DNA of 64,000 bases from Candidatus Binataceae bacterium (GCA_050736615.1 JBOHWL010000192.1:1865-65864), one strand, 5' to 3'; shown: positions 27,152 through 50,835, counted from the stretch's first letter. Translations and numbers: made by a program. Notes: a model not told the origin generated them from the letters alone.

Positions 27152-30100
27152 TTATTGATGGATCAAGACCCGACTCTGCTCGCTTGCGGAGATTGCCGGA
27201 GCCGGTGCCGGAAGCGGCCAGCATAGCGCGGCGTGTGCCGGGACCTCGCCCGCGAAATCTGGAGTGGAATCGAGGTCGTCGATTTTAGTTTGCAGACCCT
27301 GTTGCGCGGCTTGGCTTTGCCGGGCGCGCAGCTGGCTCTGTTCAAGTTTAATCTCGCCGAGTTCTTTTTTGAGCGCGATTAGCTTGCGCAGATGCTGCAA
27401 GGGATCGCGCAAATCCGTGAAGCGGTAACCGAGATCGATCCACTTGATCCCGAGATTTAACAGGGCGCCCTGGTATTGGGGGAAATCCGCGGGTAAGAAG
27501 CGGTGCGAGCCGTCGGCGAAATCGCTCAAAAAATGAATAAAGCCGTCGGGACCGCCGTAGTGCACCAGCAGTTTCATGTTCTGCAGATGGATTTCCAATT
27601 TAGTATCGCCGCAAACCGAGGGTGAATAGCTAAATGTAAGTTGTCCGGGAAAATTGTAGTTCTTGAGCACCTGATTGCCCGACGCGCATTTCAAATTGAG
27701 CACCGTTTCATAAGGAAACGCGCGCGCGTCGCGATTGACGTTCGAAGGCAACCCGGTGAGCGTCACCTGATAGCGCGCCGCGGCCAAGGTCGCGATCTCG
27801 GGTTCGAAATTGGCAATTTGATTTGCGGCCTGATCGAGTTGGTTTTTCAACTGCGTCCGCGATTGCTGACGCTCGAGATCCCCCCGCTGCTGGGAGACGT
27901 TGAGCAAACGGCGGTGGTACAATGAGTTATCGAGAAAGGTGATGAAGTCCGGATCGAAGCTCACTCCGGCGCCGTTCACCCGCACTGCTGCATAGGCGCG
28001 CGCGTCGCGCCGTAGAAAGGGCGCCGCCGGACCGTTAGTGAAATTCCAGACCAGCCCCTTGGGTCCGAACAACAGATCGCTCAACTGGTTGCGCGACGCT
28101 GGGCTTTGCGTCTGCCATAATACGCTCGACTGCCACGCCGCCTGCAGACTGCATGCGGCTTGCTGATCCGCGTAATAACGAACCGAACGCAAAGGGCCGC
28201 CAACCACGGACCAGATGATCGGATCTTCGGCGGCCGTGCCGCTCACGACGGCTTTTTTCAAAGCCTCCAGTTTGCCATAACCGTCGTTCAGGCTCGACGG
28301 CGGAGCCGCGGGGTTGATCGCGAACGCATAGTAGTCGGCCGCGATTTTTTCCGCCTTGGCCTGATTGATCAACGTGTCGTGCGACAAGCCGCGAACCGCG
28401 TCCTGATAGGCGGCGAATGCCTTGGCGGCGTCAAGCGTCTGCCCCACCTGGCTTATTCCGCGCGCCGGATTTCCAGTCAGCGTATCCGCGACCACTGCGG
28501 GGCCGTTCACACTCAACGCGCCAGCGATCCGCGTGCCTCCTTTGAGCATACCCGCGGCTTGGCCAAGCTTCTGTGCGGCGGCGATTGCATGGAGCTGGGC
28601 AACCCAGGGTAGCGAATTCTGGTTGCCGAGTTCCTCATTCATGTGGCGCAGCAACTGGAAATAGGGGTCCGATCGCGTACCCACGATCGAGAGCAAGCTC
28701 TTCCACTGATTTTTACCACGCAATCGATTACGGCCCAGATCGAAGCTCGCGGCGAACGAGTACCAGGCTCCGTCACGTTTCTGCGCGTACCATTGCTCAA
28801 AGAGATCACGCCGCCGCTGCAATAGATTCTTGGACAACAACGCCTTGTGCAACTCTTGGATAAACGCGCCAATCGCCGCTTGACCCGAATTCGTATAGGC
28901 TGGCGGCACCGCGAGCGCTTCCGGTGGCAACCCCTCGCCGGGCCAGAAATCGGCCACTGTGACCGGTTTCAGGCCGGGTTGCAGGTTGGCCCAATCGATC
29001 AGCCAGCTCATATTCTCATTGCTCACCGCGAACAGGTTTCCCAACCTTTTTCTGAGCTGATCGACATAAAGCTCCTCGCTCAGATGATCGCGATTGAAGG
29101 CAAAATGCGCGGCGACGAACGTGCCGAACATCGGGCTCGCCGCGGCCATATCAATTTTAGGATCCAAATAGCCGAGCTCGGCGAGCGTCGGCAGCGGCAT
29201 GGCGATTAACTGATTGTAATCCGCACCCGCAAGACGCGCCTGGCCAAGGTTGGCGCGACGGGTCAGGTACTCGATAATGTCCGCATATTCCTTTTGCGGG
29301 GGCGCCTGCGAACGCAGCAGTTCATTTTCGCGATGGCGAATCATGCCGTCGGTTTCCGGCACGATATAGCCGTCGAAGGTCTTCAGAAATGATTGTTCGA
29401 ACGCCTGCTCGACGCGATACACCTTGCCGCTAAAGGGCAGCCAGGCGGCCGCTCCGTTTTCATTACGGCCGTTCATCCACAGAAGAAAGTCCTCGTAGCC
29501 TTTGAGCCGGTGCAAATCCTGATCAAGCACCCCCGTCATTACCGGCGTTTTCGGAAAGAGGCTTCGGGCAACCTCCAGATTGTTGAGCGCACGAATGAAC
29601 GCGGCGGAAAGCAGCGCGATCAATACCCCGGCGAACACCAGCCAAGACATCAAGCCGATGCTTTTGGTCACCTCGTCCCAGCGCCAGGTAGTATTGAGCG
29701 GCCGCGCCAGCGTACGTTCCGACGGCAGGATTAGGGCAAAGAGATCATGCAGGAAAAAGCTTCTGCTCGTGCCGGGCAGCTCACTGGTGCGGTCCTCGGG
29801 CGCAAGACTGCCCAGCAGGTGTGAGTCCGCCTTGCCCTGTTGCTCGCCACTGCCGAAGAACAGGCCGCGCAGATAAGCCGTTTCCAGATATGGATTGGCC
29901 CCGAAGACACCCCCAAGCAGAACCCGCAGACCCAGGTTAAGCTGTTCGAATTCATCGGGAAAGGCCAGCAACGACGGCTCGGCGGGATCGCCCCGGCTCA
30001 GGATTTCGAAACGCAAATCGCGCAGCCGTCCACCCACCTGCTCCATCGCGTGATCAACGAACTCATCGATGGTCCGTCGCCGATTCTCGCTGGAATCGTC

Positions 30101-30904
30101 ATTGGGCGCGATGAATCCCATCGGCTGCCGCAGGGCCTGCTCGGACAAGATGCCGCTTAAGGCTTGGATTCCGAACAAATGGTCCAGGTGGGTCACCAGC
30201 ACATAGACGGGGAAGCGCACGTCCGAGATCGACATCAACTGCGCCAGCCTCGTATGGAAAAACGCCGCCTTGCCGCCGAGCCGGTCGGTATCGGGATTGA
30301 GCAATTCGTCAGCGCTGACCGTCAACACCACGCCGTTCAAGGGTTCGCGGCGGCGCTCACTCGCGATCAGATCGACTAACGTTTCCCATTCCCGGTCGGT
30401 ATCCGCTGAATGATCAGGCGCGGCGTAGCGACCGGCGGTATCAAAGACAATCGCGCGATCGAAGTAAAACCATTCGATATTGCCGGTCGGAACCATCGGC
30501 ACCGCCGGATTCACCCCGGTCATGGGTGAAACCGCGCGCGAACGCGCCAGTGCGGCGGTTTTTCCCGCACCCGCTTCACCCAGCATCAGGAACCACGGCA
30601 GGCTGTGGATCGGATTACCCGTCTTGCGCAACCCGGAGGTTTTGAGGCGCTTAACCTCTTGCCGCCATTTCGCGCGTAATGCGGCCACGCGGTCCTTGCC
30701 AATCGCCCCCGCCTGTTCCTCGCTCATGCGGAGGACCAGAAGCTTCGCATGGCGCCGATTGAGCAGCCGCCGGATAAAGATCAGGCCGCCCAGCAGGGCC
30801 AAGGCGCCGAGGAAAATCACGATCGCGAGCGGCAGCGGCGCGCGCGCGTACAGCGTAATCGCAAGCGACACGATCGCCAACGCGACGAGCGCGATGAAAA
30901 TCAA
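27152..30904 (-). CDS. tssM: type VI secretion system membrane subunit TssM (IcmF)
   Basis: 1250 aa with N-terminal TMs, Walker A GEAGAGKT and an IcmF-like C-terminal domain. Confidence 0.92.
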   Translation of the reverse strand: MIFIALVALAIVSLAITLYARAPLPLAIVIFLGALALLGGLIFIRRLLNRRHAKLLVLRMSEEQAGAIGKDRVAALRAKWRQEVKRLKTSGLRKTGNPIHSLPWFLMLGEAGAGKTAALARSRAVSPMTGVNPAVPMVPTGNIEWFYFDRAIVFDTAGRYAAPDHSADTDREWETLVDLIASERRREPLNGVVLTVSADELLNPDTDRLGGKAAFFHTRLAQLMSISDVRFPVYVLVTHLDHLFGIQALSGILSEQALRQPMGFIAPNDDSSENRRRTIDEFVDHAMEQVGGRLRDLRFEILSRGDPAEPSLLAFPDEFEQLNLGLRVLLGGVFGANPYLETAYLRGLFFGSGEQQGKADSHLLGSLAPEDRTSELPGTSRSFFLHDLFALILPSERTLARPLNTTWRWDEVTKSIGLMSWLVFAGVLIALLSAAFIRALNNLEVARSLFPKTPVMTGVLDQDLHRLKGYEDFLLWMNGRNENGAAAWLPFSGKVYRVEQAFEQSFLKTFDGYIVPETDGMIRHRENELLRSQAPPQKEYADIIEYLTRRANLGQARLAGADYNQLIAMPLPTLAELGYLDPKIDMAAASPMFGTFVAAHFAFNRDHLSEELYVDQLRKRLGNLFAVSNENMSWLIDWANLQPGLKPVTVADFWPGEGLPPEALAVPPAYTNSGQAAIGAFIQELHKALLSKNLLQRRRDLFEQWYAQKRDGAWYSFAASFDLGRNRLRGKNQWKSLLSIVGTRSDPYFQLLRHMNEELGNQNSLPWVAQLHAIAAAQKLGQAAGMLKGGTRIAGALSVNGPAVVADTLTGNPARGISQVGQTLDAAKAFAAYQDAVRGLSHDTLINQAKAEKIAADYYAFAINPAAPPSSLNDGYGKLEALKKAVVSGTAAEDPIIWSVVGGPLRSVRYYADQQAACSLQAAWQSSVLWQTQSPASRNQLSDLLFGPKGLVWNFTNGPAAPFLRRDARAYAAVRVNGAGVSFDPDFITFLDNSLYHRRLLNVSQQRGDLERQQSRTQLKNQLDQAANQIANFEPEIATLAAARYQVTLTGLPSNVNRDARAFPYETVLNLKCASGNQVLKNYNFPGQLTFSYSPSVCGDTKLEIHLQNMKLLVHYGGPDGFIHFLSDFADGSHRFLPADFPQYQGALLNLGIKWIDLGYRFTDLRDPLQHLRKLIALKKELGEIKLEQSQLRARQSQAAQQGLQTKIDDLDSTPDFAGEVPAHAALCWPLPAPAPAISASEQSRVLIHQ

Positions 30905-30951
30905 AAGGCCTTTCAGTAACTTGTTAATCGCCTGCCCCCCAGCGTGGTTGA

Positions 30952-31617
30952 TTAACCCGATATACTTAAAATGTGGCGGACCATGCCTTCGAGGATCAGT
31001 TGATAAGTGAGATAGAGACCCAACACCACGACGGCGGGGCCGATCAGCAGGCCCGCAAGCGCCTGGAAGCGCCGCGCGTCTTGCGGCGGCGCGGACGTGA
31101 CCGGTGCTTCGGGTGGATAGGCCATGCTGAAAATCGGCCGGTTCTGACTAAGCGCGCCGCCGCGCCCGCCTTCGAGCATTTCCAGTTGCCCGCGCTTAAG
31201 CCGCTCCAGCATCGCGTGGTCGGCCGGATGGTTGTATTTGCCGCGAAAGCCCAGCGCCAGCGCCATGTAATAGACACCGCGAATCTCGCGCTGACGCGGC
31301 TCCAGGGCTTCCAACCGGTCGTAAAATTCGGCGCCGGCGCGAATCGTTTTAAACAGGCTTTTTTGCAGCGGCGCTTTTCTCCATTGATTCGCTTCGGGCC
31401 AGTCCGAGCACAGCACGCTTTCGTCCACCCATGCGATCAGCGGAAACAGCGCTAGTTGAAAATCCTCGTCGCCAATGAGCGTCTTGCGGCTTTCCGCCCG
31501 AGCCGCGTCGACCAGCGTGGTCACCCGTGCGCGCAGTTGTTCACAATCGCCGCTGGGATGCCGCAAGAACGCCAGCACGTAGGCGAACGTCTCGATGAAA
31601 AGCTCCTCGAGCTTCAT
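30952..31617 (-). CDS. tssL: type VI secretion system protein TssL (DotU family)
   Basis: DotU-like cytoplasmic domain plus a single C-terminal TM helix. Confidence 0.85.
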   Translation of the reverse strand: MKLEELFIETFAYVLAFLRHPSGDCEQLRARVTTLVDAARAESRKTLIGDEDFQLALFPLIAWVDESVLCSDWPEANQWRKAPLQKSLFKTIRAGAEFYDRLEALEPRQREIRGVYYMALALGFRGKYNHPADHAMLERLKRGQLEMLEGGRGGALSQNRPIFSMAYPPEAPVTSAPPQDARRFQALAGLLIGPAVVVLGLYLTYQLILEGMVRHILSISG

Positions 31618-31620
31618 TGG

Positions 31621-33009
31621 CTATCCCCGCAACACCACGATTTCGGCTTGCAAATCCTCGGGTGCGTCGGCCCAGAACAGCGCCACGGCGCCTTCCTTTT
31701 CGACGTCGGACCACGGTTGGCAAAGCGATTCAATCCGGAAATAAAGTGAATAGCTGGCGCGCGGCAGGCCCTGCGGAGCAACCGGCATGTTGATCAGTTC
31801 GATCCCCGGCAGTGCGCGGCTGGTCAACAGCCCGATCTGGCTGGGCGCCGCCATGATCGCGCCCACCTGAAAGGCTTCGAGCACGTCCGGCGCGGGCACC
31901 TCCGTGCGCATCACCAGGTAATAGCGGCTGCGCGGCGCGAAAAAGCCCTTGGGCAGATTTGCCTTGAAAATATCGCCATCGCGCTCGAGCCGGGCCAGAA
32001 ACTCCGGACCGACGGTGAGGTCATTGAGCAGATTGGTGACCAATGATTTCGCGGCGACGATGCATTGCGCGAGATTTTCATGATTATACGGGGGCAACGC
32101 GGGTCCGCCGTCGCTGGATTCGCCCAGCAGGTTGTAGCGTTCGGAAAATGAACTCAACTCGCCCACCAACTGCCGCATCACGCCGTACACCAGCCAAGGA
32201 TGAACCCGCGAGGTCTCGGTCAAATGGAACAGGACCGGCGCGTATCGGTTGAGCGAGCGCAACGCCAGCAGATACACCATGTAACTGGCGTCGAACTCCG
32301 ACTTGCGCATCTCACGCGGCGATTTATATTGCTCCAGTTGACGGCTGCGCCCGGCGATTTCGTCGCGCAAATCCTTCAACAGCCGCGTCAACACCTCCGA
32401 CCCGGATAGGGCAAAGCAGGGCGGGATGAAGTTGCCCGCCAGCACCACGCGATCGCCGTCACGCACCAGCCGCGCGACCTGAATCGTGTCGTAGTCTTCC
32501 ATATGCTCGAGTTCGGCCGCCCAAAAAATTCGCAGCAACAGAGTCAAGCGCCGCACCTTGGCCGCCGGACCGTCGGCATACAGATCGCCCATCTCCTCGG
32601 GTTCGGCCGGCGTGATAAAGCGCCGGTTTAGCGCCGCCGTGTTGGTGTCGACGCCGATGACCGCGACATTGCGCTCGCGCTCGCTCAGCCGCTTGAGCCC
32701 GATATGAACGTCAAACGGCTGCGCACTATCAGTCCAATCCTTGTCGAATGAGCGCGAGCTGACGGTGGCGTTGCCCGGATATTCGGCGTATGAACCGTCA
32801 CGGAACAGCAGACTCGCCTGACGCAACTCGAAGACCCGATTGGCTAGCGCCGCCTCGGCAATTTCCACCGCGCCCACGCCCCAGTTATGCGGAACACTGC
32901 AATCAAGCAGCGGCTTGACCAGGTAATTCGCATACAAGTCGGAAAGCTGCAGATGCTGCGGCTGCAGGTACAGTCCCTGATGCCAAAATACCGGCTGCTT
33001 TATCTCCAT
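31621..33009 (-). CDS. tssK: type VI secretion system baseplate protein TssK
   Basis: N-terminal VFWHQGLYLQPQHLQ motif at 462 aa. Confidence 0.9.
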   Translation of the reverse strand: MEIKQPVFWHQGLYLQPQHLQLSDLYANYLVKPLLDCSVPHNWGVGAVEIAEAALANRVFELRQASLLFRDGSYAEYPGNATVSSRSFDKDWTDSAQPFDVHIGLKRLSERERNVAVIGVDTNTAALNRRFITPAEPEEMGDLYADGPAAKVRRLTLLLRIFWAAELEHMEDYDTIQVARLVRDGDRVVLAGNFIPPCFALSGSEVLTRLLKDLRDEIAGRSRQLEQYKSPREMRKSEFDASYMVYLLALRSLNRYAPVLFHLTETSRVHPWLVYGVMRQLVGELSSFSERYNLLGESSDGGPALPPYNHENLAQCIVAAKSLVTNLLNDLTVGPEFLARLERDGDIFKANLPKGFFAPRSRYYLVMRTEVPAPDVLEAFQVGAIMAAPSQIGLLTSRALPGIELINMPVAPQGLPRASYSLYFRIESLCQPWSDVEKEGAVALFWADAPEDLQAEIVVLRG

Positions 33010-33027
33010 CGCGCGCCTCTCATTTGA

Positions 33028-33801
33028 TCACTTGGCCGGCGGATTGACGCTCTGAGTGGCGATCAAAGCCCGCCGAATACGCGCGTCGCTAATCGCCACC
33101 TGGCCCATCGGGGCGCTCACGAGCGGCTGAATCTTACCGTCCAGCTTCGAGTCATCGCGCGCGGCCGTGCTGATACCCTCGGGCCCGAGATGGAGCGCGA
33201 CTTTTAATTGACCGGGCGCCGCGGTCGCGGATTTGAAGATGATGCCGCTGGTCTTCACCACCAGCGGCACCGCGAACAGCCGCGCCGTGCGCACTGGATC
33301 GAGCGAATAATAACCCACCAACAGACCGACGAAGCGCGCGTTGGCGACGCGGTCGAGAGTCAGCGTGGCCTCGCGTCCGGGTGTGACGATAAAGCTCTTG
33401 CTATCAAGCAGGATGCCTTGGCCAGGCCCGGGTTTGAGTATTGCCGCGCCGCCATGTCCCGCCTCGAGCATCGACGCGATCGAAGATTGGGTGGCGAGCT
33501 GAGTCAGAAACACGTTGGTTCCCTGGCTTTGGTAAACGCCCAGCACCACCGTATGCGGCCGGCTGTCATATGAATTCAGATTGGCGTCCGCGGTGACATT
33601 CAGCTCAATTCCATTGGCTTGCGCGCCCCACGTGACCTGTTTGAGCGCGGCGCGCTCGGCCCGCGCGGAACTCATGAAGCAGCCGCTCAGGCAAAGGGCC
33701 GCCGCCGCGAGCAGAACCTGAAGTGCCCGGCTTGGCGCATCCGCGCTCAATCCGCCGCGTACGCTCCCCGCTTGGTGGCTATTCCAGTTGCACGCTTTCA
33801 T
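33028..33801 (-). CDS. tssJ: T6SS outer-membrane lipoprotein, TssJ-like (extended)
   Basis: Lipobox LSGC. The LNSYDSRPHTVVLGVYQ segment resembles the TssJ/SciN core. At 257 aa it is longer than the canonical ~160 aa. Confidence 0.6.
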   Translation of the reverse strand: MKACNWNSHQAGSVRGGLSADAPSRALQVLLAAAALCLSGCFMSSARAERAALKQVTWGAQANGIELNVTADANLNSYDSRPHTVVLGVYQSQGTNVFLTQLATQSSIASMLEAGHGGAAILKPGPGQGILLDSKSFIVTPGREATLTLDRVANARFVGLLVGYYSLDPVRTARLFAVPLVVKTSGIIFKSATAAPGQLKVALHLGPEGISTAARDDSKLDGKIQPLVSAPMGQVAISDARIRRALIATQSVNPPAK

Positions 33802-34601
33802 TTGAGACGATGGACGAACAGTTCGGCCGCATCTGCTTCGGCATAGGGACCGAAGAGAATCGCGTCGGGTGAGCCTTCCACACGCACGAAATAGGAGTCA
33901 TTCGGGCCAAGTTGATTGCGCACCGCCCAGGCGCAAAATTCTTTGGCGCCCATCGTCAGCCTCAACCCCATTTGCGGGAAATTCAGCACCGTGCGATCGG
34001 GAATTTTGCCGCGCCCGCCGGCCGCATGCAGGTTGATTGCGCCGCCCGCCACCCCGAACAGCGCCCCATTCCAGCTTTCGTCCCGAGGACCCAACTCAAA
34101 CCATTGGCCGATCCGCTGATCGCCGTAAGCGTCGAGTCGATACTCGGCAACCGCCGCGGCCGGCCTGAGATTCGCCAAGGCGACCAACTTCGCCTCCCAC
34201 GAGGGCGTATCCGTGGTGATAATGGCCGCCCCGGCCAGCGGGGTCGGAAGCTCCACGGCACTGATCGTTCGCGCGCCACTGGAGATCAGGACAGTCGCCG
34301 GCGATATCTCAGCCTGCGCGCGTAGCGCAAGCGCGAACAGCGACAGACCATAACGGACACTGTCGCTTTGCAAACCACCCTCGCCCGTCAAGATCAACCA
34401 TATCGCCGCTCGGGCGCGGACAACTTCATCGCGCGCGGCGATCCATGCAAAGTTGGCCAAATCGTCGGTCCACAAATGGCCGTCAACTTTCAAGCCGTAG
34501 CGCGCCAGCCTGGCAGCCACCATTTGCACCGGCTGCTCGGTTTTCTCCAGCGCAGTGAGCCAAACGGTCTTCATCATTCGTCCGGCCAAACGCCTTCCCA
34601 C
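33798..34601 (-). CDS. hypothetical protein embedded in the T6SS operon
   Basis: 267 aa. The 4-bp overlap with the tssJ start suggests translational coupling. No signal peptide and no recognisable motif. Confidence 0.55.
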   Translation of the reverse strand: MGRRLAGRMMKTVWLTALEKTEQPVQMVAARLARYGLKVDGHLWTDDLANFAWIAARDEVVRARAAIWLILTGEGGLQSDSVRYGLSLFALALRAQAEISPATVLISSGARTISAVELPTPLAGAAIITTDTPSWEAKLVALANLRPAAAVAEYRLDAYGDQRIGQWFELGPRDESWNGALFGVAGGAINLHAAGGRGKIPDRTVLNFPQMGLRLTMGAKEFCAWAVRNQLGPNDSYFVRVEGSPDAILFGPYAEADAAELFVHRLK

Positions 34602-34619
34602 CTTCGCATCACAAATCGG

Positions 34620-35027
34620 TTAAGGAGCCAGCAAAAGAACGGTGAACTGGCTCGGCACCAGTGTCACACCCGGGCAATTGGTCAGATTCTGCAATGTTAC
34701 TGAGGTCAGGCGCGTGGCCGGAGCGCCGTCCACGATGACGGTAAAGGCGCCGGTTATTTGCCGCGTCGGGCCCATCACCACGCCCGAGGCCACGCCCAAC
34801 TCGACGCCGGGGTCATCGCCCTGACTCAGCGGGACCTCCGTCATCAGATTGTGCGCCGGCGTGCCGCCAAACAGGATATTGTAGGCGGCGGGCACGCCCA
34901 TCGCTTCGGTCGATAGGTTTGGATAGGGCGTGGGCACGGGCACACCCGCAATCGGGGTATTGCACACATCAGGAAAGCCCATATTCATTCCGCCCATCTG
35001 AGTATTCGCGAACATGTTCTCCTCCAC
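34620..35027 (-). CDS. PAAR-like protein (DUF4150)
   Basis: MFANTQMGGMNMGFPDVCNTP N-terminus is typical of the DUF4150 PAAR-like spike-tip family. Confidence 0.8.
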   Translation of the reverse strand: MEENMFANTQMGGMNMGFPDVCNTPIAGVPVPTPYPNLSTEAMGVPAAYNILFGGTPAHNLMTEVPLSQGDDPGVELGVASGVVMGPTRQITGAFTVIVDGAPATRLTSVTLQNLTNCPGVTLVPSQFTVLLLAP

Positions 35028-35684
35028 TCACCCCAGATGAATCTGGCCGGCATCAATCTTGGCCAGCTCTTCCGACATCACAATCGTGTTACGCGAATCC
35101 AGCGCGAACAGCTCATCGCAATGATACTGAGTATTGCGGGTGGTAATGTGCTCATGCTGATCGACGCGCCTGAAGCTTCGCGCGATCCATTGGGTCAAGG
35201 TCTCGACCACCGACTCGAACCGCGTCGCCACCAGTTTCACCCGGCCCACCACCGCGTTGAGGGATGCGCCGCTGTGGTTCAGTTCCCCAACGGTCACGTC
35301 GCCGCGCCCGGCGGCGACATTGATCGCGGAGGAAAGAAGGGAAATATCGGCCGGACTTGCCAGGTCGATGCCGTTTTCGGCGTTCAATAAAAGCCGCCCG
35401 CGTGCGATTTTGAGATGGACATCGCCCTCGAATGCGAGGCCCAGCCGCGCGCCGCTGCCGCGTTCGAGAATCGCCAGGACATACGAGGTACGGTCATCGC
35501 AGGTAACGTACAAAACCTTATCGCCCAAGGCTGGAATAAGTATGCAACTGAAAGCGCGCTCGCATCTCAGCAGGCCCCGCTCGCCGCGCACCGTGAGTGG
35601 TTCGCACAGATGCACCACACCGGTCATGATGCCAGTGGGGGCCGGATGCGGCGGGCGCTCAAGTTTATAAATTGAACTAGCCAT
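35028..35684 (-). CDS. DUF3540-domain protein
   Basis: ~218 aa, placed between the pentapeptide-repeat and PAAR-like genes, which is the conserved neighbourhood of DUF3540. Confidence 0.55.
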   Translation of the reverse strand: MASSIYKLERPPHPAPTGIMTGVVHLCEPLTVRGERGLLRCERAFSCILIPALGDKVLYVTCDDRTSYVLAILERGSGARLGLAFEGDVHLKIARGRLLLNAENGIDLASPADISLLSSAINVAAGRGDVTVGELNHSGASLNAVVGRVKLVATRFESVVETLTQWIARSFRRVDQHEHITTRNTQYHCDELFALDSRNTIVMSEELAKIDAGQIHLG

Positions 35685-35693
35685 TGGAATCCT

Positions 35694-36761
35694 CTATCGG
35701 CGCGCGCCCCAATCCTCCGCCTCGGCCAGTTCGGGATCGGTGCCCGACGCGCTCGCACGGTTCGCGCTTCCCCACAACACCTGCGAAAGGTCGGCGCGAT
35801 GGAATTTGGCGCGGGCCAGCATGGCGCCATTGAAATCGGCACCCTCGAGCTTGGCATGGAAGAAGTCGCAGAACGAAAGATTCGCGCGCGCAAAGCCGGT
35901 GCGCTGACACAACGCGCGGCTGAACTGCGCCTGTCCCAGCTCGGCGCCATCCAGCCGCGCGGCTGTGAGATCCGCCTCGATAAACAGCGCCTGCGTCAGC
36001 GAAGTACGCTTGAGGCTCGCGCCCTCCATTTTCGCCTGCACGAAGATCGCATTGTCCGCGCGCGCCCCATCGAGTATCGCACCGGTCAGATTGGCGCCTT
36101 TGAAATTGCATTGCGACAGATTGGCGCCGCTCAGATCGCATCCCGACAAATCGGCCTCCATAAACTGGCAGAGCTCGAGATTCGCGCCGGACAATTTCTG
36201 TCCAGCCAGTGTGGAATTCATAAAAAACGAAAGCTCGCAAGCCATGCCAGCCATCACCGCGCTGGATAAGTTGGTTTTGATGAGCGTCGTCCGGTGCAGC
36301 CTCGCGTTCGCAAAATTGACACCAGTCAACACGCTGTTAAGAATCGAAGTTCGCTCAAGATGCGCACCGGTGAGATCCGCCGAACTCATATCGGTGTTGA
36401 TAAAGGCCGTCAGCTTGAGATCAGCTTCTCCGAGTTCCACCCCCTTGAGTCCGCAATCAAGGATTTTGGCATTCAGCAGCTTGCTCCGTTCCAAATTGGT
36501 CCGTTCCAGCTTGGAGCGCTCGATCACGGTACGGCTCAGCAGCGCGTCGCCCAGGTCGGCTTCGGAAAAATCCGCTTCGCTCAGAATCGATTCCTCGAAC
36601 GAAACGCGTTGTAGCTTGGCTCCGCGAAAATTCACCTTATTGAACACGCCGCCGGATAAGTCAGCGTCCGCCAGGTCGAGGCTGGAAAAATCCATATTGG
36701 TTATAAGCTCGCCGTTGCGCACGCCCGCAATCAGTTCCTCCCGTGTCATCGCGGCTTCCAA
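35694..36761 (-). CDS. pentapeptide-repeat protein
   Basis: Tandem A(D/N)LxG/A(N/D)F pentapeptide repeats run through the whole protein. Confidence 0.9.
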   Translation of the reverse strand: MEAAMTREELIAGVRNGELITNMDFSSLDLADADLSGGVFNKVNFRGAKLQRVSFEESILSEADFSEADLGDALLSRTVIERSKLERTNLERSKLLNAKILDCGLKGVELGEADLKLTAFINTDMSSADLTGAHLERTSILNSVLTGVNFANARLHRTTLIKTNLSSAVMAGMACELSFFMNSTLAGQKLSGANLELCQFMEADLSGCDLSGANLSQCNFKGANLTGAILDGARADNAIFVQAKMEGASLKRTSLTQALFIEADLTAARLDGAELGQAQFSRALCQRTGFARANLSFCDFFHAKLEGADFNGAMLARAKFHRADLSQVLWGSANRASASGTDPELAEAEDWGARR

Positions 36762-39484
36762 TCTTTAAGCAGGGTGCGCTTGAGATTGGAGCCGGCCAAA
36801 TCGGTGTGCTGGTCGAGTGTCGCGTGCAAAACGTCAGCCCGATACATATTTGCCGCGCGTATCGAGGCGCCGCTCAGAATCGCCTTGTGCATCACCGCCT
36901 CGAACAGATTGGCGCCGTCTAAATTGCTTCCGCTGAGATCGCTGCGCGTCGTCCGCAGCCGCGACAAGTCAGCGCGCTGAAAATCAGCGCGCTTGAGATT
37001 CGCGCCGGAAAAATCCGCGTTCGCGGCTTTCGCTTCGACGAGCTTCGCTTCCTCCAAATTGGCATCGCGAAGACTCGCGCCTTCGATCCCGGCACGCGAG
37101 AAGTCCGCGCCGGGCAACGTGCTATTGATGGTGAAGACCAACTTTTCAGTTCGCACATCGGCAAAGCTCGCATGCGCAAGCTTTGAGTCGAGAAAACTGA
37201 CGCGGCGCATCTTAGCCCCTTCGAAGCCGACCGCGTTGAGCTGGTCGCGCAGAAACAACACCCGTTCCATTTCCGCGCGTGCGAATTTGGCGCCGCTGAA
37301 ATCGCTGTCGATGAAATTAATGTGTTCGAGGTGAGCGGCGGAGAAGTCCGCGTTCGACGGCTTGGCGCCGAGAAAATCGACCTTGTCCATCCGGGCGCCG
37401 GTAAAATCGGCGGCCGCCAGCACCGCGCCGGCCAGCGTCGCCCCGGTGAAATCCGCATCGTTAACCGTGGCGCCGGTAAAATCCGCTCCTCCCGCACAAC
37501 TGTTGTTCAACTTCGCATTCCCGAGTTTCGCTTTCACTAACCGCGCGCGGGCCAGCACCGCGCCGCTGAAATCCGCTCCGCCCAAATCGCTGTTGCTGAG
37601 GTTGGCCGCCTCCATCAGAGCCTCGCGGAAATCCGCGCCGCGCAGGTCCATCCCCGACAAGTCGGCGCCAGTCAGATCAACGCCGGCAAAACTCTTCCCC
37701 TGCTTACGATCCTCCGCGACGCGGGCTTTGACCGCCGCGGCGCGCTCGGCCGGCAACGGCATCACAGGTGGAAAATGATGGGCGAATTTCCGATACGTTT
37801 CGCGTAATCGTTGTTCCGCCTGCGTCAGCTTCTCCCGCAAATCCGGCTCGGCGAGCTGGCTGTCGATCTTTTCACTGGAAAGGCCGCGCGCCTTCAAACT
37901 TTGGCTGAGGGCCGCGAGTTGTTCGAGTTGCCGCGCGGCGCTGAATTTCGGCGGACCTCCCGCTTGAACTTTCGCCTGGGCGGCTAGCTGATCGTAGTCA
38001 ACGCCCAACTGCGTGCAGCGCGCCCGCGCTGCCTCCTCCGCCTGACGGAAGCGCGCCAGCGCGTCAGCTTTCGTGGCTTCGGCATCCGCGCGGATTTTGT
38101 CCAGGTCGAGATTCTCAAGGCTCACCGGTTCGGATTCCGGTGGCAGCGTCTGCGCCAGCGCCTCATCGATCTTGGATGTGTCGGGAGGCGGCAGATTGAG
38201 TTGCTGTGCCTGCTTCAGCATCGCCTCACGCCGTTCAAGGAGTTGGGCCTTCGCGCTCTCCAACCGCTTCTCGGCTCCCGCCCGCTGATGCTTGCGCAGC
38301 AGGCCTTTGGAAGCGATCAGGGCTTGGAGTTCATTCTCGTCCTCGGGAATCACGCCTGGTGGCACCCCTTGCTCCGGCGGCATCAGGTCGCTTTCACGCA
38401 TAACCGCGCGCATCGCGCGCACTCGATTCGCCCGGTCGAGACGCGCCGACAAAACCTCCTGATAGTGGGACGCGGGTTTGGGTTGTCCGGCGGCTTCGGC
38501 GCCCGCGATGATTTGCAGGACATCCGCCGCGTCGTCGGTATTGATCGCCGCAATCCCGCGAAACAGTACGACCGCTCGTTCAAGGTGCGGAAACAGCCAC
38601 AGCGTCTCCGGCACGGTGCGAATCTCCTCGAACGATTCGCCACCATCGACCTTGCGATTGATGAAACAGCGCATGGCTATATCCGTCACACGCGAACTGA
38701 CTAATGGCTTGGAGGGATGCATTCCAGAAATTTCAAAGCTTTCACCGCCCTGAAAAAACCTCTGGAGTTGCTGATCGGCCGGCGCCGCATTGAAAATCGC
38801 CCAGTCCATATCGGCGGCAAAACCGGGAAACCGCTCCGCGAACCACCGCGCGTCATATGTGCCGGTCTTGGAAAACCGCTGCGGCCAGATGAAATCGTAC
38901 GGCTCGAAACTGGCCGCCGCCGCCGGACGGTCGCCAGGCGATCCGATCAGATGCGCCGGATCCTCGATGTTGGGCAGCGGATGTGCCGTTAGGCCGTTTT
39001 TATCGGTCACCGGCGCGACGCCTTTGCCAATCGGATTTTGCGCATATGCGGCGCCGCCGAACGCGTTGCGCCAAGATATGTCCATCCGGGTGAAAGGCGC
39101 CGGCTCTGAAGGCGCGCCGCGCCGCCAAAAGCGATCGCCGAAGACGTAGAGCCGCTTATCAATTGAGCCAAGTTGAAAACGCACCTGCAAGGCCGGCGTC
39201 GGCCGGCCGGCCGGGGAAAAACATGCGCCCTTGATCAAAACCTCGCCGCGCGTTTTCGGCATACCCAGATCGAGTACGCCGTCTTTACCCAGTTCCGCCG
39301 CGATCGTTTTCCACATCGCGGCTTCGGGCAGCAGCCACTGGGGGTTTTCGAAGGGCAAGAACGCCGCGACAGTGGCCGCCAGATAACAGCGCTCGCCGTC
39401 CTGGTAGCTCCTGTACAGCAGCCCAAGCCGTTGTGGCTTTACGATCTTCATCAAGTCTTGTCCGGTGCGACCGATGCGCTTCAA
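36746..39484 (-). CDS. DUF2169-domain protein with C-terminal pentapeptide-repeat region
   Basis: N-terminal ~330 aa resemble DUF2169 (vgrG-linked adaptor family). The middle is a coiled-coil/charged region and the C-terminal ~300 aa are pentapeptide repeats. Confidence 0.7.
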   Translation of the reverse strand: MKRIGRTGQDLMKIVKPQRLGLLYRSYQDGERCYLAATVAAFLPFENPQWLLPEAAMWKTIAAELGKDGVLDLGMPKTRGEVLIKGACFSPAGRPTPALQVRFQLGSIDKRLYVFGDRFWRRGAPSEPAPFTRMDISWRNAFGGAAYAQNPIGKGVAPVTDKNGLTAHPLPNIEDPAHLIGSPGDRPAAAASFEPYDFIWPQRFSKTGTYDARWFAERFPGFAADMDWAIFNAAPADQQLQRFFQGGESFEISGMHPSKPLVSSRVTDIAMRCFINRKVDGGESFEEIRTVPETLWLFPHLERAVVLFRGIAAINTDDAADVLQIIAGAEAAGQPKPASHYQEVLSARLDRANRVRAMRAVMRESDLMPPEQGVPPGVIPEDENELQALIASKGLLRKHQRAGAEKRLESAKAQLLERREAMLKQAQQLNLPPPDTSKIDEALAQTLPPESEPVSLENLDLDKIRADAEATKADALARFRQAEEAARARCTQLGVDYDQLAAQAKVQAGGPPKFSAARQLEQLAALSQSLKARGLSSEKIDSQLAEPDLREKLTQAEQRLRETYRKFAHHFPPVMPLPAERAAAVKARVAEDRKQGKSFAGVDLTGADLSGMDLRGADFREALMEAANLSNSDLGGADFSGAVLARARLVKAKLGNAKLNNSCAGGADFTGATVNDADFTGATLAGAVLAAADFTGARMDKVDFLGAKPSNADFSAAHLEHINFIDSDFSGAKFARAEMERVLFLRDQLNAVGFEGAKMRRVSFLDSKLAHASFADVRTEKLVFTINSTLPGADFSRAGIEGASLRDANLEEAKLVEAKAANADFSGANLKRADFQRADLSRLRTTRSDLSGSNLDGANLFEAVMHKAILSGASIRAANMYRADVLHATLDQHTDLAGSNLKRTLLKDWKPR

Positions 39485-41865
39485 GCCATGATGTGTATGA
39501 CCGCGTCCTCAATCATGTTAATGCGACTCTCGATCCTCACAGCGCCGTCTTCAATATCATTGATGGAACTGCGGATATTCGTCACTTGAGTGCTAAGTCT
39601 GCTTATCGCGTTTTCGACCCTAATGCCGTTGGTGTAAATCTCGGGCCCGCCCTTTAGCGTAATCGTGGCGGCCAGCGCCGCTTCGAGACAGATCGCGAGT
39701 TTGAGATTCTCGTAGCCGCCAATAAACATATCCTGGTAGTTGCCTACGAAATTCAGCGATGTCAGACCGATATGGTTTTCGTTATGCGCTGCAATATACG
39801 TTTCGGTGGTGGCACCGTAATAGACATAATAATCGATATCCTTGACGATATGCTCGACCGGGCCCTCGAATACAACATTGCATTTGCCTGAGACCGTAAG
39901 TTCATAATCGCCGCCGACCGTGATGTTGTAATCTCCGCTGGTATTGGTCTTCAGATCGTTTCCAACGGTGAGCGCGATATCTTTCTGGGTGTTGAACTGG
40001 ACGTCGCCGGCTTCGGGCGCGCCGTAGGCGCTTTGCCGCGGATGTGGTCCGACGTTGGTGACCGCATAGCCGGTTATGTTCGATTGCTGGTTGCCCCCGA
40101 CGATTTGGGTTGAGTCATTGGAATTGGACTGGAAATAGTCGCCATTCTTCAGCGCCGAGGGCGGCTGCGAGTTCGGCCCGACCAGCGTCTGCAGGTATTC
40201 GCCGATCCGGATACGCCCGTTGCCGTTGGTGTTGATGACGATGTGATTGCCGGTAAGCGTGCCATCATCGCCTCGCGCTCCCCATGGCGGACCGCCTTGC
40301 GTCGCACTCGTCACCGCGCCCAACGCGATATAGGTATCCTGCGTGGGAGTCCGCAGGGTGATATTTTGCGCGCCCTCCTGGTCTTCCATCCACAGCAAAT
40401 TGCCGCCGCCGGTATAAAGTACGTTCTGGGTCGAGTTGCCACTGGTGACCATGTTGGGATTGTCGGAATTCGGCACGGTGTTCACGATCACCGGACGGTC
40501 GGGGTCGCCGTCGATAAACGCAAGCAACACCTCCGCGCCTTTGCGCAATGGGAAATGCATGCCTGAGCGTGGGTCCGAATAGGGTGTCGCCAGCCTGATC
40601 CAGGCCGACGCCTTCTGCGCCGGCTTGTCGGTCTTGTCGAACGGCAACTGCACTTTGTAACGTCCGTATTGGTCAACTTCGGCGTATTGGCCGCTGCCTT
40701 CCGCGTCGATAAACCCGTTCATCACGCCATCCATGCGCGGCCACGGCGTCGTTCGCGCCGGCCGGAACTGGACGTCCGCGGCGATCGCGCTGAACTCGTT
40801 GCGATAAAACGGCTCGTCCTGCTCGCCGGACAATCCGCTGATACCCAAACCCGCCAACAGCACGGCGGTTTGCGAGCCCTTGTGACTAATCTCCAACGGC
40901 AGATAGTGCGTGTTGAAGGCCGAGCGGAAATGCCGCGCCAAAGAGAAGAAAACTCCGCTGCGCATTCCAATCGCGGTGCTCTCGCCATGGAACACCCGCC
41001 CGTGCCATGCGATTTCCTGCGCGCGCAGCTTCGCCACCCGTTCCGCTTCCGCTTGCGTATCGACATTTTCGCCGTAGAGAATGACTTCACCCACGCCGCC
41101 CGGCGAGACCGGCGCGCTTTGCGAAATGTTGAGCGCGGCCTTTTGATAATTGTAATCCTTGACCATCACGGTCGCCGGTAACGGTTGCTGCTGGCACACG
41201 AGCGCCTGCACCGCATCATCGGTCACGTGGGTATCCAAATCCGCGGCCGGCCGATAATTGAGTTTCAACTCCGGCGCGGTCTGAAAGCTCAGAGCGTCGG
41301 TGATAATCAGCTTCTCCCGTTCCGCGCCGGATTCGAAGTAGTAATAGACGCCGTCGCGCTCCATCAGCCGGCTGATAAAAGCCAGATAGGTTTCCTGGTA
41401 TTGGCACACGTAGGGCCATACGCGATATGAGCTTGACAGCCGTATTTCGTAGTCCAGACTGGTCAGTCCGCCCGCCCGCAGAATCTCCTCGATTAACTGC
41501 GGAATGGTCCGTTCCAGGTACACTTCCGACAGGTAAGTCTGCGACAACAGCCACAGCTTCGGTTCAAGCCGCGCTTCGTAAAAGACATACTGATCGACTT
41601 TGCGCGATTGTTCGAAACGAGTGACGATGCCGCGATATTCGCCACTCGCGCCGGACCCCTCGCCTCCACGGATCTTCAGAGTGGCGTCTTTATACAGCAC
41701 CGCCTCAAGATCGATATCAGCGCTGGCGGCGACCAGCGTCACGGCGAATTCGTACGGACGCGACAGGCCCTCTTTGCCGCTGATACTGACTACCGTGAAG
41801 GTGTCGGACGCGAGCGCCGAGGAATGAAATTCATAATGCCGCTCCGCGATTTGATTATCCGCCAT
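39481..41865 (-). CDS. vgrG: type VI secretion system spike protein VgrG (TssI)
   Basis: gp27/gp5-like domains at 794 aa. No extended C-terminal effector domain is present. Confidence 0.9.
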   Translation of the reverse strand: MADNQIAERHYEFHSSALASDTFTVVSISGKEGLSRPYEFAVTLVAASADIDLEAVLYKDATLKIRGGEGSGASGEYRGIVTRFEQSRKVDQYVFYEARLEPKLWLLSQTYLSEVYLERTIPQLIEEILRAGGLTSLDYEIRLSSSYRVWPYVCQYQETYLAFISRLMERDGVYYYFESGAEREKLIITDALSFQTAPELKLNYRPAADLDTHVTDDAVQALVCQQQPLPATVMVKDYNYQKAALNISQSAPVSPGGVGEVILYGENVDTQAEAERVAKLRAQEIAWHGRVFHGESTAIGMRSGVFFSLARHFRSAFNTHYLPLEISHKGSQTAVLLAGLGISGLSGEQDEPFYRNEFSAIAADVQFRPARTTPWPRMDGVMNGFIDAEGSGQYAEVDQYGRYKVQLPFDKTDKPAQKASAWIRLATPYSDPRSGMHFPLRKGAEVLLAFIDGDPDRPVIVNTVPNSDNPNMVTSGNSTQNVLYTGGGNLLWMEDQEGAQNITLRTPTQDTYIALGAVTSATQGGPPWGARGDDGTLTGNHIVINTNGNGRIRIGEYLQTLVGPNSQPPSALKNGDYFQSNSNDSTQIVGGNQQSNITGYAVTNVGPHPRQSAYGAPEAGDVQFNTQKDIALTVGNDLKTNTSGDYNITVGGDYELTVSGKCNVVFEGPVEHIVKDIDYYVYYGATTETYIAAHNENHIGLTSLNFVGNYQDMFIGGYENLKLAICLEAALAATITLKGGPEIYTNGIRVENAISRLSTQVTNIRSSINDIEDGAVRIESRINMIEDAVIHIMA

Positions 41866-41894
41866 TGGTCAATCCCACCGTGCCTTGAAACTTT

Positions 41895-44513
41895 CTACTG
41901 TGTGAATGCGACCTTGAAATCCCCGTCCGGCGCCATCTCGAGCGATACGGCGGCGGGCGCTTGCCCTTCGCCGATCCGCGCCAGAATCTCCTGCGACATC
42001 TTGGGCATCACGCCGATGGTCAAAATAAAATCGATATTACGCGCGCCGGTCTCGACCTCGGTGCAGCGCGCCGCGATTTGCGCCACCACCTCGTCAGTGT
42101 AATTCAGCTTGATCCGCTGATTGGCGGCCAGTCGCTGCGCCAATTTATCCAGCTTTAATCTGACAATGCCCTGCATCGCACCGGCCGCCAGCAGGTAATA
42201 TGGCACAATAGTCATTCGCGCCAGCAGCGCCGGTTTAAAATGATTACTCAGTATTGGCCGGATCGCGTCCGTCACGGTCGTGCCGGCGGGAATCGGATCG
42301 GCGCGGCAAAGCTCGGTAATCACGTCGCTGGCGAGATTGCTGGTGAGAAACAACACCGTATTCTTAAAATCAACCGCGCGCCCCTCACCGTCGGACAGGA
42401 CGCCTTTGTCGAAAACCTCGTAGAACAGGTTGAGCACGTCGAGGTGCGCTTTTTCAGCTTCGTCGAGCAGCACCGTCGCATAAGGACGCTGACGCACCGC
42501 CTCGGTGAGCACCCCGCCCTCGCCGTAGCCAACGTAGCCGGGCGGTGAGCCGACCAAGCGGGAGACCGTATGCTTTTCCTGGAATTCGCTCATGTTGAGC
42601 GTGACCAGCGAATGCTCGCCGCCGAAAAGCAGGTCCGCGACCGCGAGCGCGGTTTCGGTCTTGCCCACTCCGCTCGGGCCCGCCAGCAGAAACACGCCCA
42701 ACGGTTGCGCCGGGTCCTTGAGGCCCGATTTGGCCGACTTGACCACCCGGGCGATCAAATCGAGCGCCTGATCTTGCCCCTTCACGCGCGTTTTGAGGTT
42801 GTCGGCGAGGTTCAGCACGCCACGAGCCTGATCGCGCATCACCTTGCCCAGCGGAATGCCGGTCCAATCCGAGACCACCTTGGCCACCACGTCCGGATCG
42901 ACCTCGAGCCGTAATAAAGGTGAGCCGCCGCCGGCGCGCGCGTAGCCTTCGGCAGCCGCCTTGAGTTCGCGCGCGGCCGCGTCGCGCTCTTTTCCAGCGC
43001 CATTGAGGGCCGCGACTCGCCCGCGCGCTTCAATCACTTTTTGCGCGGCGGTCTGTTCCGTTTGCCAGCGCTCACGTAGGCCGGCCGCCGCCTTACTCAG
43101 CTCCTCGGCTTTTTGCCCGATCTCTTCGAGGCGGCGGCCGTCGACTTCCTGGCCGTTGTCGCGATCGCGTTCGAGCGCATGCCGCTCACGCTCGAGCGAC
43201 TCGAGATGCCGTTCGCAATCGTCAAGCGCGTCGGGTTTGGCGGTCAGACTGACGCGGACTCGCGCGGCGCTGGTATCGAGCAGGTCCACCGCCTTGTCCG
43301 GAAGCTGGCGCCCGCTGATATAACGGTTGGCCAAATCGGCGGCGGCCACAATCGCGTCGTCGCGCACGATCACGCCATGGGCCTGTTCATATTTTTCTTT
43401 CAGGCCCCGCAGAATTTCCACCGACGTGTCAACCGAAGGCTCGTCGAGCTTGACCAACTGAAAGCGGCGCGCCAGCGCGGCGTCCTTTTCGAAATATTTT
43501 TTGTACTCCGACCAGGTGGTGGCCGCGATGGTGCGCAATTCACCGCGCGCCAGCGCGGGTTTGAGCAGATTGGCCGCATCACCTCCGCCCGCCTGCCCGC
43601 CCGCACCGATTAGCGTATGGGCCTCGTCAATAAAAAGAATAATTGGCTTGGCCGAGCCTTTGATTTCAGTGATGACCGATTTGAGCCGATTTTCGAATTC
43701 GCCGCGAACACCCGCGCCTGCTTGCAGCAGACCCATGTCCAGCCCGAGCACCGTCACGCCGCGCAGGAAATCGGGAATGTCGTCGCGCACCACGCGCAGG
43801 GCGAGTCCTTCGACCACCGCGGTCTTGCCCACGCCCGGGTCGCCGACGCAAATCGGGTTATTCTTGCGGCGGCGCGCAAGAATATCGATCATTTGGCGGA
43901 TTTCCTGGTCGCGTCCGAACACCGGATCGATCGCACCCTCGCGTGCGCGCGCCGTAAAATCCATACAGAAGCGCGCCAGCGCCGTGCCGCCGCCGTCAAC
44001 CGCCGTCGCGGCGCTGGCGGAGCCAGCCGCTTTGACCGCTTCGAGCGACTCTCTGGTGACCGCGAAAAACTCGGCCATGATCCGTTCGCGGTTAAGCCCT
44101 CGCAGCAAATCAACATACGCGCCCGAGGCAAAGAATGACGCGCGCGCCAGCAACGCCAACAGCATCGCGCCCGAGCGGATTCGATCGGCGCCGAGATCGA
44201 TCGAGCTCAGCACCCAGGCGTCCTGCACCCATTCCAGCAATAGCGGCGAAAATACCGGTTTGGCGCCATTGCCGGTGCGAAAATCCTCAATCGCGCGGTT
44301 CACCGCCGCTTGCATCCGCGCGCCCTCGATTCCTTGTTTGCCCAGAATCAGATTAAGGTCGCAACGCGCGTCGGCGAGCAAAGCGCTCAAAAAATGCTCG
44401 ACCGTGATCTCGTAATTGGTTCGCGAGAGGCACGCGCCGGCGGCATTTTCAAGCGCACGGGTGCTATACGGATTAAGCCGCGCCACCAGCCCCTTGAGGT
44501 CCGCAAGAATCAT
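41895..44513 (-). CDS. clpV: type VI secretion system ATPase TssH (ClpV)
   Basis: Two AAA+ modules (GDPGVGKT, GPSGVGKT) with a Clp N-domain. Confidence 0.95.
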   Translation of the reverse strand: MILADLKGLVARLNPYSTRALENAAGACLSRTNYEITVEHFLSALLADARCDLNLILGKQGIEGARMQAAVNRAIEDFRTGNGAKPVFSPLLLEWVQDAWVLSSIDLGADRIRSGAMLLALLARASFFASGAYVDLLRGLNRERIMAEFFAVTRESLEAVKAAGSASAATAVDGGGTALARFCMDFTARAREGAIDPVFGRDQEIRQMIDILARRRKNNPICVGDPGVGKTAVVEGLALRVVRDDIPDFLRGVTVLGLDMGLLQAGAGVRGEFENRLKSVITEIKGSAKPIILFIDEAHTLIGAGGQAGGGDAANLLKPALARGELRTIAATTWSEYKKYFEKDAALARRFQLVKLDEPSVDTSVEILRGLKEKYEQAHGVIVRDDAIVAAADLANRYISGRQLPDKAVDLLDTSAARVRVSLTAKPDALDDCERHLESLERERHALERDRDNGQEVDGRRLEEIGQKAEELSKAAAGLRERWQTEQTAAQKVIEARGRVAALNGAGKERDAAARELKAAAEGYARAGGGSPLLRLEVDPDVVAKVVSDWTGIPLGKVMRDQARGVLNLADNLKTRVKGQDQALDLIARVVKSAKSGLKDPAQPLGVFLLAGPSGVGKTETALAVADLLFGGEHSLVTLNMSEFQEKHTVSRLVGSPPGYVGYGEGGVLTEAVRQRPYATVLLDEAEKAHLDVLNLFYEVFDKGVLSDGEGRAVDFKNTVLFLTSNLASDVITELCRADPIPAGTTVTDAIRPILSNHFKPALLARMTIVPYYLLAAGAMQGIVRLKLDKLAQRLAANQRIKLNYTDEVVAQIAARCTEVETGARNIDFILTIGVMPKMSQEILARIGEGQAPAAVSLEMAPDGDFKVAFTQ

Positions 44514-44605
44514 CGGTTAGCCAAGCCGCTCCCAAACCGGATGGCGGCTTGGTTCCATTGCAGCCCGCCGTGCGCCTATCCACAATCCAGATGAAATTCC
44601 GCTTT

Positions 44606-47289: not shown

Positions 47290-47546
47290 CCCGCCCTTAA
47301 CCCACTCGTGACCACGTCGCGGAGTTAATCAGCACGCGGCTTGCGGACTCGCCCGCTTCCGCTGTCGCGCGGAGGCACTGGCGCGGTTTCATTTCGTTCC
47401 GCTGAGGACGTTCCACCGCGTGCTCGCCTTCCCGCGTACCGCCGCGGGAGCGCCCCCGAGGATTGATTTCGCATGCCCCCTCCGTTGCGTTCGCGCTTAA
47501 CCCGGCGGCGTCGAACGAGATGGCGCACACGCCCCCGCCTTCTCCC

Positions 47547-47963: not shown

Positions 47964-47965
47964 CG

Positions 47966-48448: not shown

Positions 48449-48529
48449 GGATGATTCCCTCCCTCTTTCCGTCTATTGCTAAATTCACGCCGCACGCCGG
48501 CGATAGCATAGCCACCTGATACCCAGTGG

Positions 48530-50041: not shown

Positions 50042-50053
50042 ATCGGGCGCTCC

Positions 50054-50548: not shown

Positions 50549-50835
50549 GAGAAGCCCTCCTCAGCGAAAATTGTCCTATCGTAGTGACTCCGCGACTGGC
50601 ATTAGCGCCGTCATATAGCATGACGCGAATCAATCAAAATCACGTCGCAGCGGATTATTGTCAGCGTAACGATGTGATGAGATTGATCTAAATTGAATGA
50701 GGCTTGAAGCTAGCAGACCGCAATAGTCAATGTCAATTTATAATTCTAAATAATCGATGTCTGGCCGCTTCATCTTGTGACGATGATCGGCTGCAAATTT
50801 CAGCGATTTACGATTTTGACGATGGAGTATTTTCA
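50549..50835. promoter_or_regulatory. divergent tssBC / tssA intergenic promoter region
   Basis: 287-bp region with markedly lower GC than the flanks, between divergently oriented T6SS genes. No sigma-54 -24/-12 box was recognised. Confidence 0.4.

Follow-up and report, generated by a model that had tools for sequence, protein, structure and literature searches.

The DNA examined here, referred to as the window, is a 64,000-nucleotide stretch of a metagenome-assembled genome from an uncultured organism, Candidatus Binataceae bacterium (GCA_050736615.1, JBOHWL010000192.1:1865-65864), which we take to belong to the phylum Binatota. Our subject is a run of four genes that lies directly 3' of vgrG within a complete 13-gene type VI secretion system (T6SS) cluster (Table 1). 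In order, they encode a DUF2169 domain fused to pentapeptide repeats, a second pentapeptide-repeat protein, a DUF3540 protein and a PAAR-like DUF4150 protein. The corresponding set of Serratia marcescens Db10, SMDB11_2247-2250, has been renamed TvpAB, TvpB, TvpC and Paar1 (Monlezun, Earl and Coulthurst, EMBO J 2026; PMC13373197), and we use these names for the homologues described below. A further gene, X259, adjoins the PAAR-like gene and precedes tssJ.

Table 1. Features of the locus, in window coordinates; the four module genes are given as longest open reading frame (ORF) calls, and lengths are in amino acids (aa).
Feature	Coordinates	Strand	Family matches
vgrG (794 aa)	39481..41865	-	Pfam Phage_GPD, Phage_base_V; TIGR03361
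tvpAB / tagAB homologue (912 aa; likelier 901 aa)	36746..39484	-	Pfam DUF2169 + Pentapeptide
tvpB / tagB homologue (355 aa; likelier 351 aa)	35694..36761	-	Pfam Pentapeptide
tvpC / tagC homologue (218 aa)	35028..35684	-	Pfam DUF3540
Stand-alone PAAR-like DUF4150 protein, Paar1 / TagD homologue (135 aa; likelier 131 aa)	34620..35027	-	Pfam Tox-PAAR-like
X259 (annotated 259 aa, start ATG 34577)	33798..34601	-	no Pfam / NCBIfam match
Complete T6SS cluster holding the module	27152..52344	both strands	Pfam + NCBIfam matches for every core gene

The initial annotation of this DNA described the four genes as co-directional and overlapping. Their positions, orientation and tight packing were confirmed, and all the families score far above their Pfam cut-offs; the overlap, however, is confined to one junction. 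Inspection of start codons and ribosome-binding sites favours starts at ATG 39451 for tvpAB, ATG 36749 for tvpB and ATG 35015 for the PAAR-like gene, the last with GGAGGA ahead of it. With these starts only tvpAB and tvpB overlap, the tvpB start meeting the tvpAB stop as ATGA, and the remaining junctions are gaps of 9-30 nucleotides.

In TvpAB, the DUF2169 domain (PF09937) spans residues 34-309 (E = 1.1e-80; 271.6 bits, cut-off 25) and matches a solved DUF2169 chaperone structure, 8VTH (E = 1.7e-18). Pentapeptide repeats (PF00805, E = 1.2e-48) occupy approximately residues 596-905, with 58 in-register pentads and the repeat β-helix at residues 604-890. The region in between (approximately residues 331-595) had been annotated as a charged coiled-coil linker. 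It is charged and probably helical, but it gives tblastn matches in most related loci (E down to 8e-42) and is therefore a domain rather than a spacer; its conservation fits the published picture of helices gripping the prism. TvpB consists of repeats throughout (PF00805, E = 2.6e-58) and contains 61 pentads, so that the original estimate of about 60 repeats agrees well with the counts for both proteins.

DUF3540 (PF12059) matches TvpC from position 11 of the profile to its last position, 199 (E = 4.1e-54; 184 bits, cut-off 27.9). The PAAR-like protein belongs to Tox-PAAR-like (PF13665, which we take to be the former DUF4150; E = 4.4e-37). It is 131-135 aa long with no extra or toxin domain, and alignment pairs it with the PAAR-like domain at the N-terminus of 8QJC, a T6SS Rhs protein (E = 2.8e-7). 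At the position of the PIPY motif (34950-34990) it reads PTPY in place of P(I/V)PY; the 78 related loci have PVPY (36), PIPY (33), PLPY (2), PTPY (1) or no match (6). VgrG, encoded immediately upstream of the module, is recognized by Phage_GPD (E = 1.9e-69) and by TIGR03361 (E = 6e-97) and carries an extension of ~285 aa beyond its core. Its length lies inside the range of 700-800 aa published for Tvp-linked VgrGs (PMC13373197).

Gene order and its conservation were examined across species by scanning one genome per species with a 12-sequence alignment. This gave 249 DUF3540 loci, found through DUF3540 similarity alone, of which the best 80 were searched by tblastn with the proteins of the window. 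They come mostly from Sorangium and other Myxococcota, from Desulfobacterota and from a few Burkholderiales, and the counts that follow refer to loci with enough flank. The PAAR-like gene directly follows TvpC in 75 of 79 loci and is directly upstream in two more. A repeat protein precedes TvpC in 76 of 78; 72 of 73 loci have DUF2169 at a distance of 2.5-5.5 kb upstream, and 60 of 66 have an upstream vgrG. All 71 loci that could be evaluated encode TvpB as an ORF of its own, and in 70 of these 71 TvpAB contains repeats. The order vgrG-tvpAB-tvpB-tvpC-paar is thus almost invariant, and the module is a fixed vgrG-linked unit. Domain E-values and conserved synteny together exclude chance. Core T6SS genes were found within 10 kb in only 4 of 55 loci: the module usually sits in vgrG islands, whereas here it is embedded in the main T6SS cluster. 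The check named in the initial annotation, whether the module is equally common outside T6SS loci, does not refute its link to T6SS: vgrG lies upstream in 60 of the 66 related modules, though most of these copies are in vgrG islands and not in core T6SS clusters.

The same four families, in the same order and downstream of a long VgrG, constitute the Class III Tvp set of Serratia, a likeness that we draw from family assignment and gene order. Class III is defined by DUF3540 and repeat proteins (PMC13373197), and the locus contains every one of its genes: a DUF2169 protein with a C-terminal repeat fusion, a separate TvpB, a DUF3540 TvpC and a DUF4150 PAAR-like protein after TvpC. The start of tvpAB (39451-39484) comes directly after the end of vgrG (39481), the location next to a long VgrG that is characteristic of this class. 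We conclude, with a probability of about 0.8, that the four genes are a Class III Tvp module whose products act as cytoplasmic chaperones building the VgrG-PAAR spike tip of the surrounding T6SS. The initial annotation was right in its gene calls, its domain assignments and its view of a VgrG-linked adaptor-type module. Its statement that the function is unknown and the role not established has been overtaken, as the gene set was named in 2007, classified in 2025 and characterized in Serratia in 2026.

According to the review PMC6335564, the names tagAB, tagB, tagC and tagD were given to this gene set by Shalom et al. (2007) in Burkholderia T6SS-5, the B. pseudomallei genes being BPSS1504-1507. 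Secretion of Hcp-5, formation of multinucleated giant cells and virulence all depend there on TagA/B-5, which the review takes to indicate a part in T6SS activity and not an effector. The set corresponds to 'synteny type C' in the classification of DUF2169 genes, of which it accounts for ~37% (Sachar et al., J. Biol. Chem. 2025; PMC11883445). In Vibrio, DUF2169 chaperones the DUF4150 'PIPY' tip domain (PMC11883445), and work on B. glumae, as cited in the same paper, found that the DUF2169 and repeat domains are both needed. In Serratia, deletion of tvpAB, tvpB, tvpC or paar1 abolishes VgrG1-dependent killing and Hcp secretion. Pull-downs gave a TvpC-TvpAB-TvpB-Paar1 pre-complex that is mutually exclusive with a VgrG1-TvpAB-TvpB-Paar1 complex. 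TvpC was modelled as a trimer of OB-fold and β-prism that mimics VgrG, and interface mutants lose function; TvpAB is wrapped around the tip, which TvpB closes in the manner of a seat belt (PMC13373197). A 2026 review repeats the chaperone reading of TagAB (PMC13584744).

Carried over to the Binataceae locus, this work suggests the following sequence of events. TvpC would form a trimer, with an OB-fold and a short β-prism, that imitates the end of VgrG and serves as a surrogate tip. The PAAR-like cone would dock on this tip, the DUF2169 domain of TvpAB covering the hydrophobic surface of the cone, while the helical middle of TvpAB would grip the prism and the repeat β-helices of TvpAB and TvpB would belt the tip. 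The long VgrG would then replace TvpC, giving a VgrG-Paar-TvpAB-TvpB complex that is presumably needed before baseplate and sheath can assemble and the system can fire. TvpAB and TvpB would finally come off and remain inside the cell. Domain membership, the gene order and its conservation, the OB-fold of TvpC and its weak likeness to spike proteins are results of the present analysis; the complexes, the replacement of TvpC by VgrG and the non-secretion of the chaperones are inferred by homology from the Serratia and Burkholderia work. As a single vgrG is visible in the cluster, all firing by this system probably depends on the module, as in Burkholderia T6SS-5.

The known systems differ from the present locus in several respects. 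In Serratia, the immunity gene vai1 and another gene separate vgrG1 from tvpAB and there is a second VgrG pathway, whereas here tvpAB directly follows the one visible vgrG, the extra gene X259 comes after paar, and the host is a Candidatus Binataceae metagenome-assembled genome. The closest parallel in layout is Burkholderia T6SS-5, for which the table in PMC6335564 gives an identical order, running tssB, tssC, hcp, tssE, tssF, tssG, clpV, vgrG, tagAB, tagB, tagC, tagD, tssJ, tssK, tssL, tssM. Both clusters encode a single VgrG with a C-terminal extension and a PAAR-like protein of ~130 aa without a toxin domain; unlike T6SS-5, the present cluster has X259 between tagD and tssJ and lacks the virAG regulators. 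The locus fits the definition of DUF2169 synteny type C, the experiments in PMC11883445 having covered types A and B, and departs from it in the PTPY motif, found in 1 of the 78 related loci. Class I and II Tvp systems (Agrobacterium Tap2/Tde2 and Pseudomonas aeruginosa PA0096-PA0098/Tse7) likewise encode, after a dedicated vgrG, a DUF2169 protein that chaperones a DUF4150 tip, but they are devoid of repeat domains and of DUF3540. Class II has a short DUF6484 TvpC and a PRK06147 TvpD, and the PAAR-like domain is fused to a toxin.

The structure of TvpC was predicted with AlphaFold2 as a monomer, using 80 homologues. The model (mean predicted local distance difference test score, pLDDT, 86.6) combines a confident OB-fold (residues 17-74) with a confident extended chain after it, as would be expected of a strand-swapped trimeric prism when modelled as a monomer. 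Over its full length, Foldseek matches it to spike proteins of contractile systems, namely Afp8, the spikes of R2 pyocin and Mu and a T6SS VgrG; all these matches are weak (E = 0.008-0.4) and interleaved with matches to the OB-fold only, such as the GTPases YloQ and RsgA. VgrG is also the best PDB sequence match of the TvpC profile (E = 0.006). These data are consistent with TvpC being a VgrG-tip mimic composed of an OB-fold and a segment predicted to form a β-prism; they agree with the published model rather than prove it independently.

The C-termini of the two proteins that would exchange at the tip are alike, VgrG ending in EDAVIHIMA (39481-39510) and TvpC in KIDAGQIHLG (35028-35060), the most conserved stretch of the DUF3540 family. 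Of 40 unique C-termini of Tvp-linked VgrGs, 11 carry a terminal [ILVFM]-H-[ILVFMT]-x(1-3) motif, compared with 7 of 1875 ORF ends in the control, an enrichment inflated by related Sorangium paralogues and measured against a crude control set. The shared motif hints that TvpC and VgrG may offer the same docking strand to the Paar or PAAR-like cone.

Some of the evidence weighs against a Class III chaperone module. The mechanism is carried over from Serratia to a host known only as a metagenome-assembled genome, and one vgrG alone is visible in the cluster. All the proteins have only distant relatives, and of the 1248 relatives of TvpC among 1.84 billion cluster representatives none is more than ~40% identical to it. 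The resemblance of the TvpC model to spike proteins is weak, as noted above, and hhalign of the 80-sequence TvpC profile with the window VgrG, entered as one sequence and not as a profile, produced nothing meaningful (probability 0.2). The inflated count and the crude control likewise reduce what the terminal motif can contribute. In searches with TvpC itself, a word-indexed protein search returned the query and one relative, and a profile search returned 107 DUF3540 proteins, none of them labelled Serratia or Burkholderia.

Pentapeptide-repeat proteins such as Qnr and MfpA share with TvpAB and TvpB the right-handed quadrilateral β-helix repeat class, and the initial annotation had raised the idea that the repeat proteins are themselves delivered as DNA-mimic toxins that attack the gyrase of prey. 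TvpB is mildly acidic (net charge -10, pI 5.1, bulk charge only), as this idea would have it, and there are weak matches to the NCBIfam models of both families. However, these fall far under the family cut-offs of 240 bits for Qnr and 360 bits for MfpA, TvpB scoring 92 and 70.6 bits and TvpAB 66.7 and 57.1 bits respectively, so that neither protein belongs to either family by the NCBIfam cut-offs. Among solved structures the nearest relatives of TvpB are the designed 'beta1' and cyanobacterial pentapeptide-repeat proteins, which are not gyrase binders; QnrB1 (E = 2.6e-11) and MfpA (E = 5.3e-8) come much lower among its matches. The repeat domain of TvpAB is near neutral (net charge -2, pI 6.35, again bulk charge only), TvpAB and TvpB, with ~60 pentads, are much longer than Qnr and MfpA, and they stand in a T6SS context with a documented chaperone role. 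No immunity gene is present. The published loss of Hcp secretion on loss of tagAB or tvpAB is an apparatus defect and therefore not the phenotype of an effector, and in Serratia TvpAB and TvpB were never detected as secreted (PMC13373197). On the strength of the sub-cut-off scores, the near-neutral TvpAB repeats, the missing immunity gene, the apparatus phenotype and the non-secretion, we rejected the DNA-mimic toxin, which we regard as highly improbable.

The second idea raised for the repeat proteins, a scaffold that extends the spike, comes closer than the toxin, since the VgrG-PAAR tip is indeed wrapped by TvpAB and TvpB ahead of firing. In Serratia they co-purify with VgrG1 and Paar1 and enclose the tip in models (PMC13373197), so that a repeat-protein wrapper exists on the loaded spike. 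It is the further claim, that this structural extension or sheath rides on the tip and is fired out of the cell as part of the projectile, that conflicts with the published model, in which the chaperones are released before export. A wrapper of ~1250 residues would, moreover, presumably have to pass through the baseplate and the membrane complex. We consider firing of the repeat proteins improbable, if less so than a gyrase toxin, and prefer their action as chaperones that remain in the cytoplasm.

The delivered toxic activity most likely resides in the C-terminal extension of VgrG or in effectors encoded at other sites, rather than in the repeat proteins. The initial annotation saw no effector, which holds for recognizable toxin families in the cluster and its flanks: none was found there, the flanks carry housekeeping genes only, and the cluster contains no regulator, no Fha/PpkA-type gene and no recognizable effector-immunity pair.

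The gene next to the module, X259, appears to be co-transcribed with it, lies outside the published Tvp module and has no match in Pfam or NCBIfam. With 23 homologues it represents a small unannotated family. Its AlphaFold2 model (pLDDT 90.8) shows a flavodoxin/CheY/TIR-like N-terminal domain and a β-rich C-terminal domain. All the contexts examined place the gene in a T6SS or vgrG locus, most of the loci found coming from metagenome-assembled genomes labelled Polaromonas, Burkholderiales or Smithella. It generally stands immediately behind the PAAR-like gene, two loci have it upstream of vgrG, and one T6SS carries it together with a canonical PAAR and no Tvp genes. X259 is therefore associated with T6SS without being specific to Tvp modules. 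It could be a spike-associated component not described before, either a cargo effector on the VgrG-PAAR tip or a further accessory factor of this T6SS lineage, a suggestion that we put forward tentatively and regard as unlikely. If X259 were cargo, the module here would load a new toxin family with a TIR/flavodoxin-like domain, going beyond the chaperoning of the spike.

A more general form of this suggestion, which overlaps with the chaperone reading, is that the module is an adaptor that loads a separate cargo effector, X259 or a protein encoded elsewhere, on the VgrG-PAAR tip. DUF2169 proteins are required to deliver DUF4150-bearing effectors in Agrobacterium and Vibrio (PMC13373197, PMC11883445), X259 comes directly after the PAAR-like gene here and in several other loci, and about nine related PAAR-like ORFs exceed 250 aa and could carry toxin domains. 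Yet X259 has no immunity-like partner in the window, occurs in just 6 of the 80 surveyed Tvp loci and, given its presence in a T6SS with a canonical PAAR and no Tvp genes, is not tied to the module. Serratia VgrG1 pull-downs, too, gave no separate effector, VgrG1 itself being the suspected toxin (PMC13373197). We judge a dedicated cargo adaptor to be possible but unlikely, and a Class III Tvp module that assembles the spike tip remains the preferred interpretation.

The surrounding cluster is arranged on the minus strand as tssB, tssC, hcp, tssE, tssF, tssG, clpV, vgrG, the four tvp/paar genes, X259, tssJ, tssK, tssL and tssM, the last at 27152-30904, with tssA on the plus strand at 50704-52344. 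A 108-aa ORF between tssE and tssF (47297-47623, minus strand) has no Pfam match, overlaps the 3' end of tssE by ~77 nucleotides and is probably not a real gene.

The mechanism of the four-gene module was published in 2025-2026, and the locus therefore adds little to the understanding of how T6SS work. Its value is in annotation and taxonomy, since it places a complete cluster resembling Burkholderia T6SS-5, Class III Tvp module included, in an uncultured member of the Binataceae. The phyla named in the published Tvp survey do not include Binatota (PMC13373197), and no paper combining 'Binatota' and 'type VI secretion' was found in the literature searched. The host, the divergence of the module (TvpC is at most 40% identical to any relative) and the neighbouring X259 are modestly new. 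Our survey, composed mostly of Myxococcota and Desulfobacterota, provides independent support for the near-invariant gene order and for the location of most copies in orphan vgrG islands. The X259 family and the C-terminal motif common to TvpC and VgrG are small leads.

Variants of the layout were seen in a few loci. One locus (L086, 5134-8748) encodes an 856-aa fusion of DUF2169 and repeats followed directly by DUF3540, without a separate TvpB gene and with X259 upstream of vgrG; it could represent a reduced form of the Class III arrangement. A Burkholderiales metagenome-assembled genome (L072) has two Class III modules in tandem beside core T6SS genes. In Sorangium, one chromosome can have as many as three Class III modules (for example L032/L035/L080 and L016/L036/L046), most of them in vgrG islands that lack core T6SS genes within 10 kb. 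In L003/L004 (1342-4033), the gene between TvpAB and TvpC encodes 592 aa with no precomputed Pfam match and with repeats detected by tblastn; the DUF3540 protein of this variant is 296 aa long, and genes for an FHA-domain and an SLT-domain protein come next, followed by X259.

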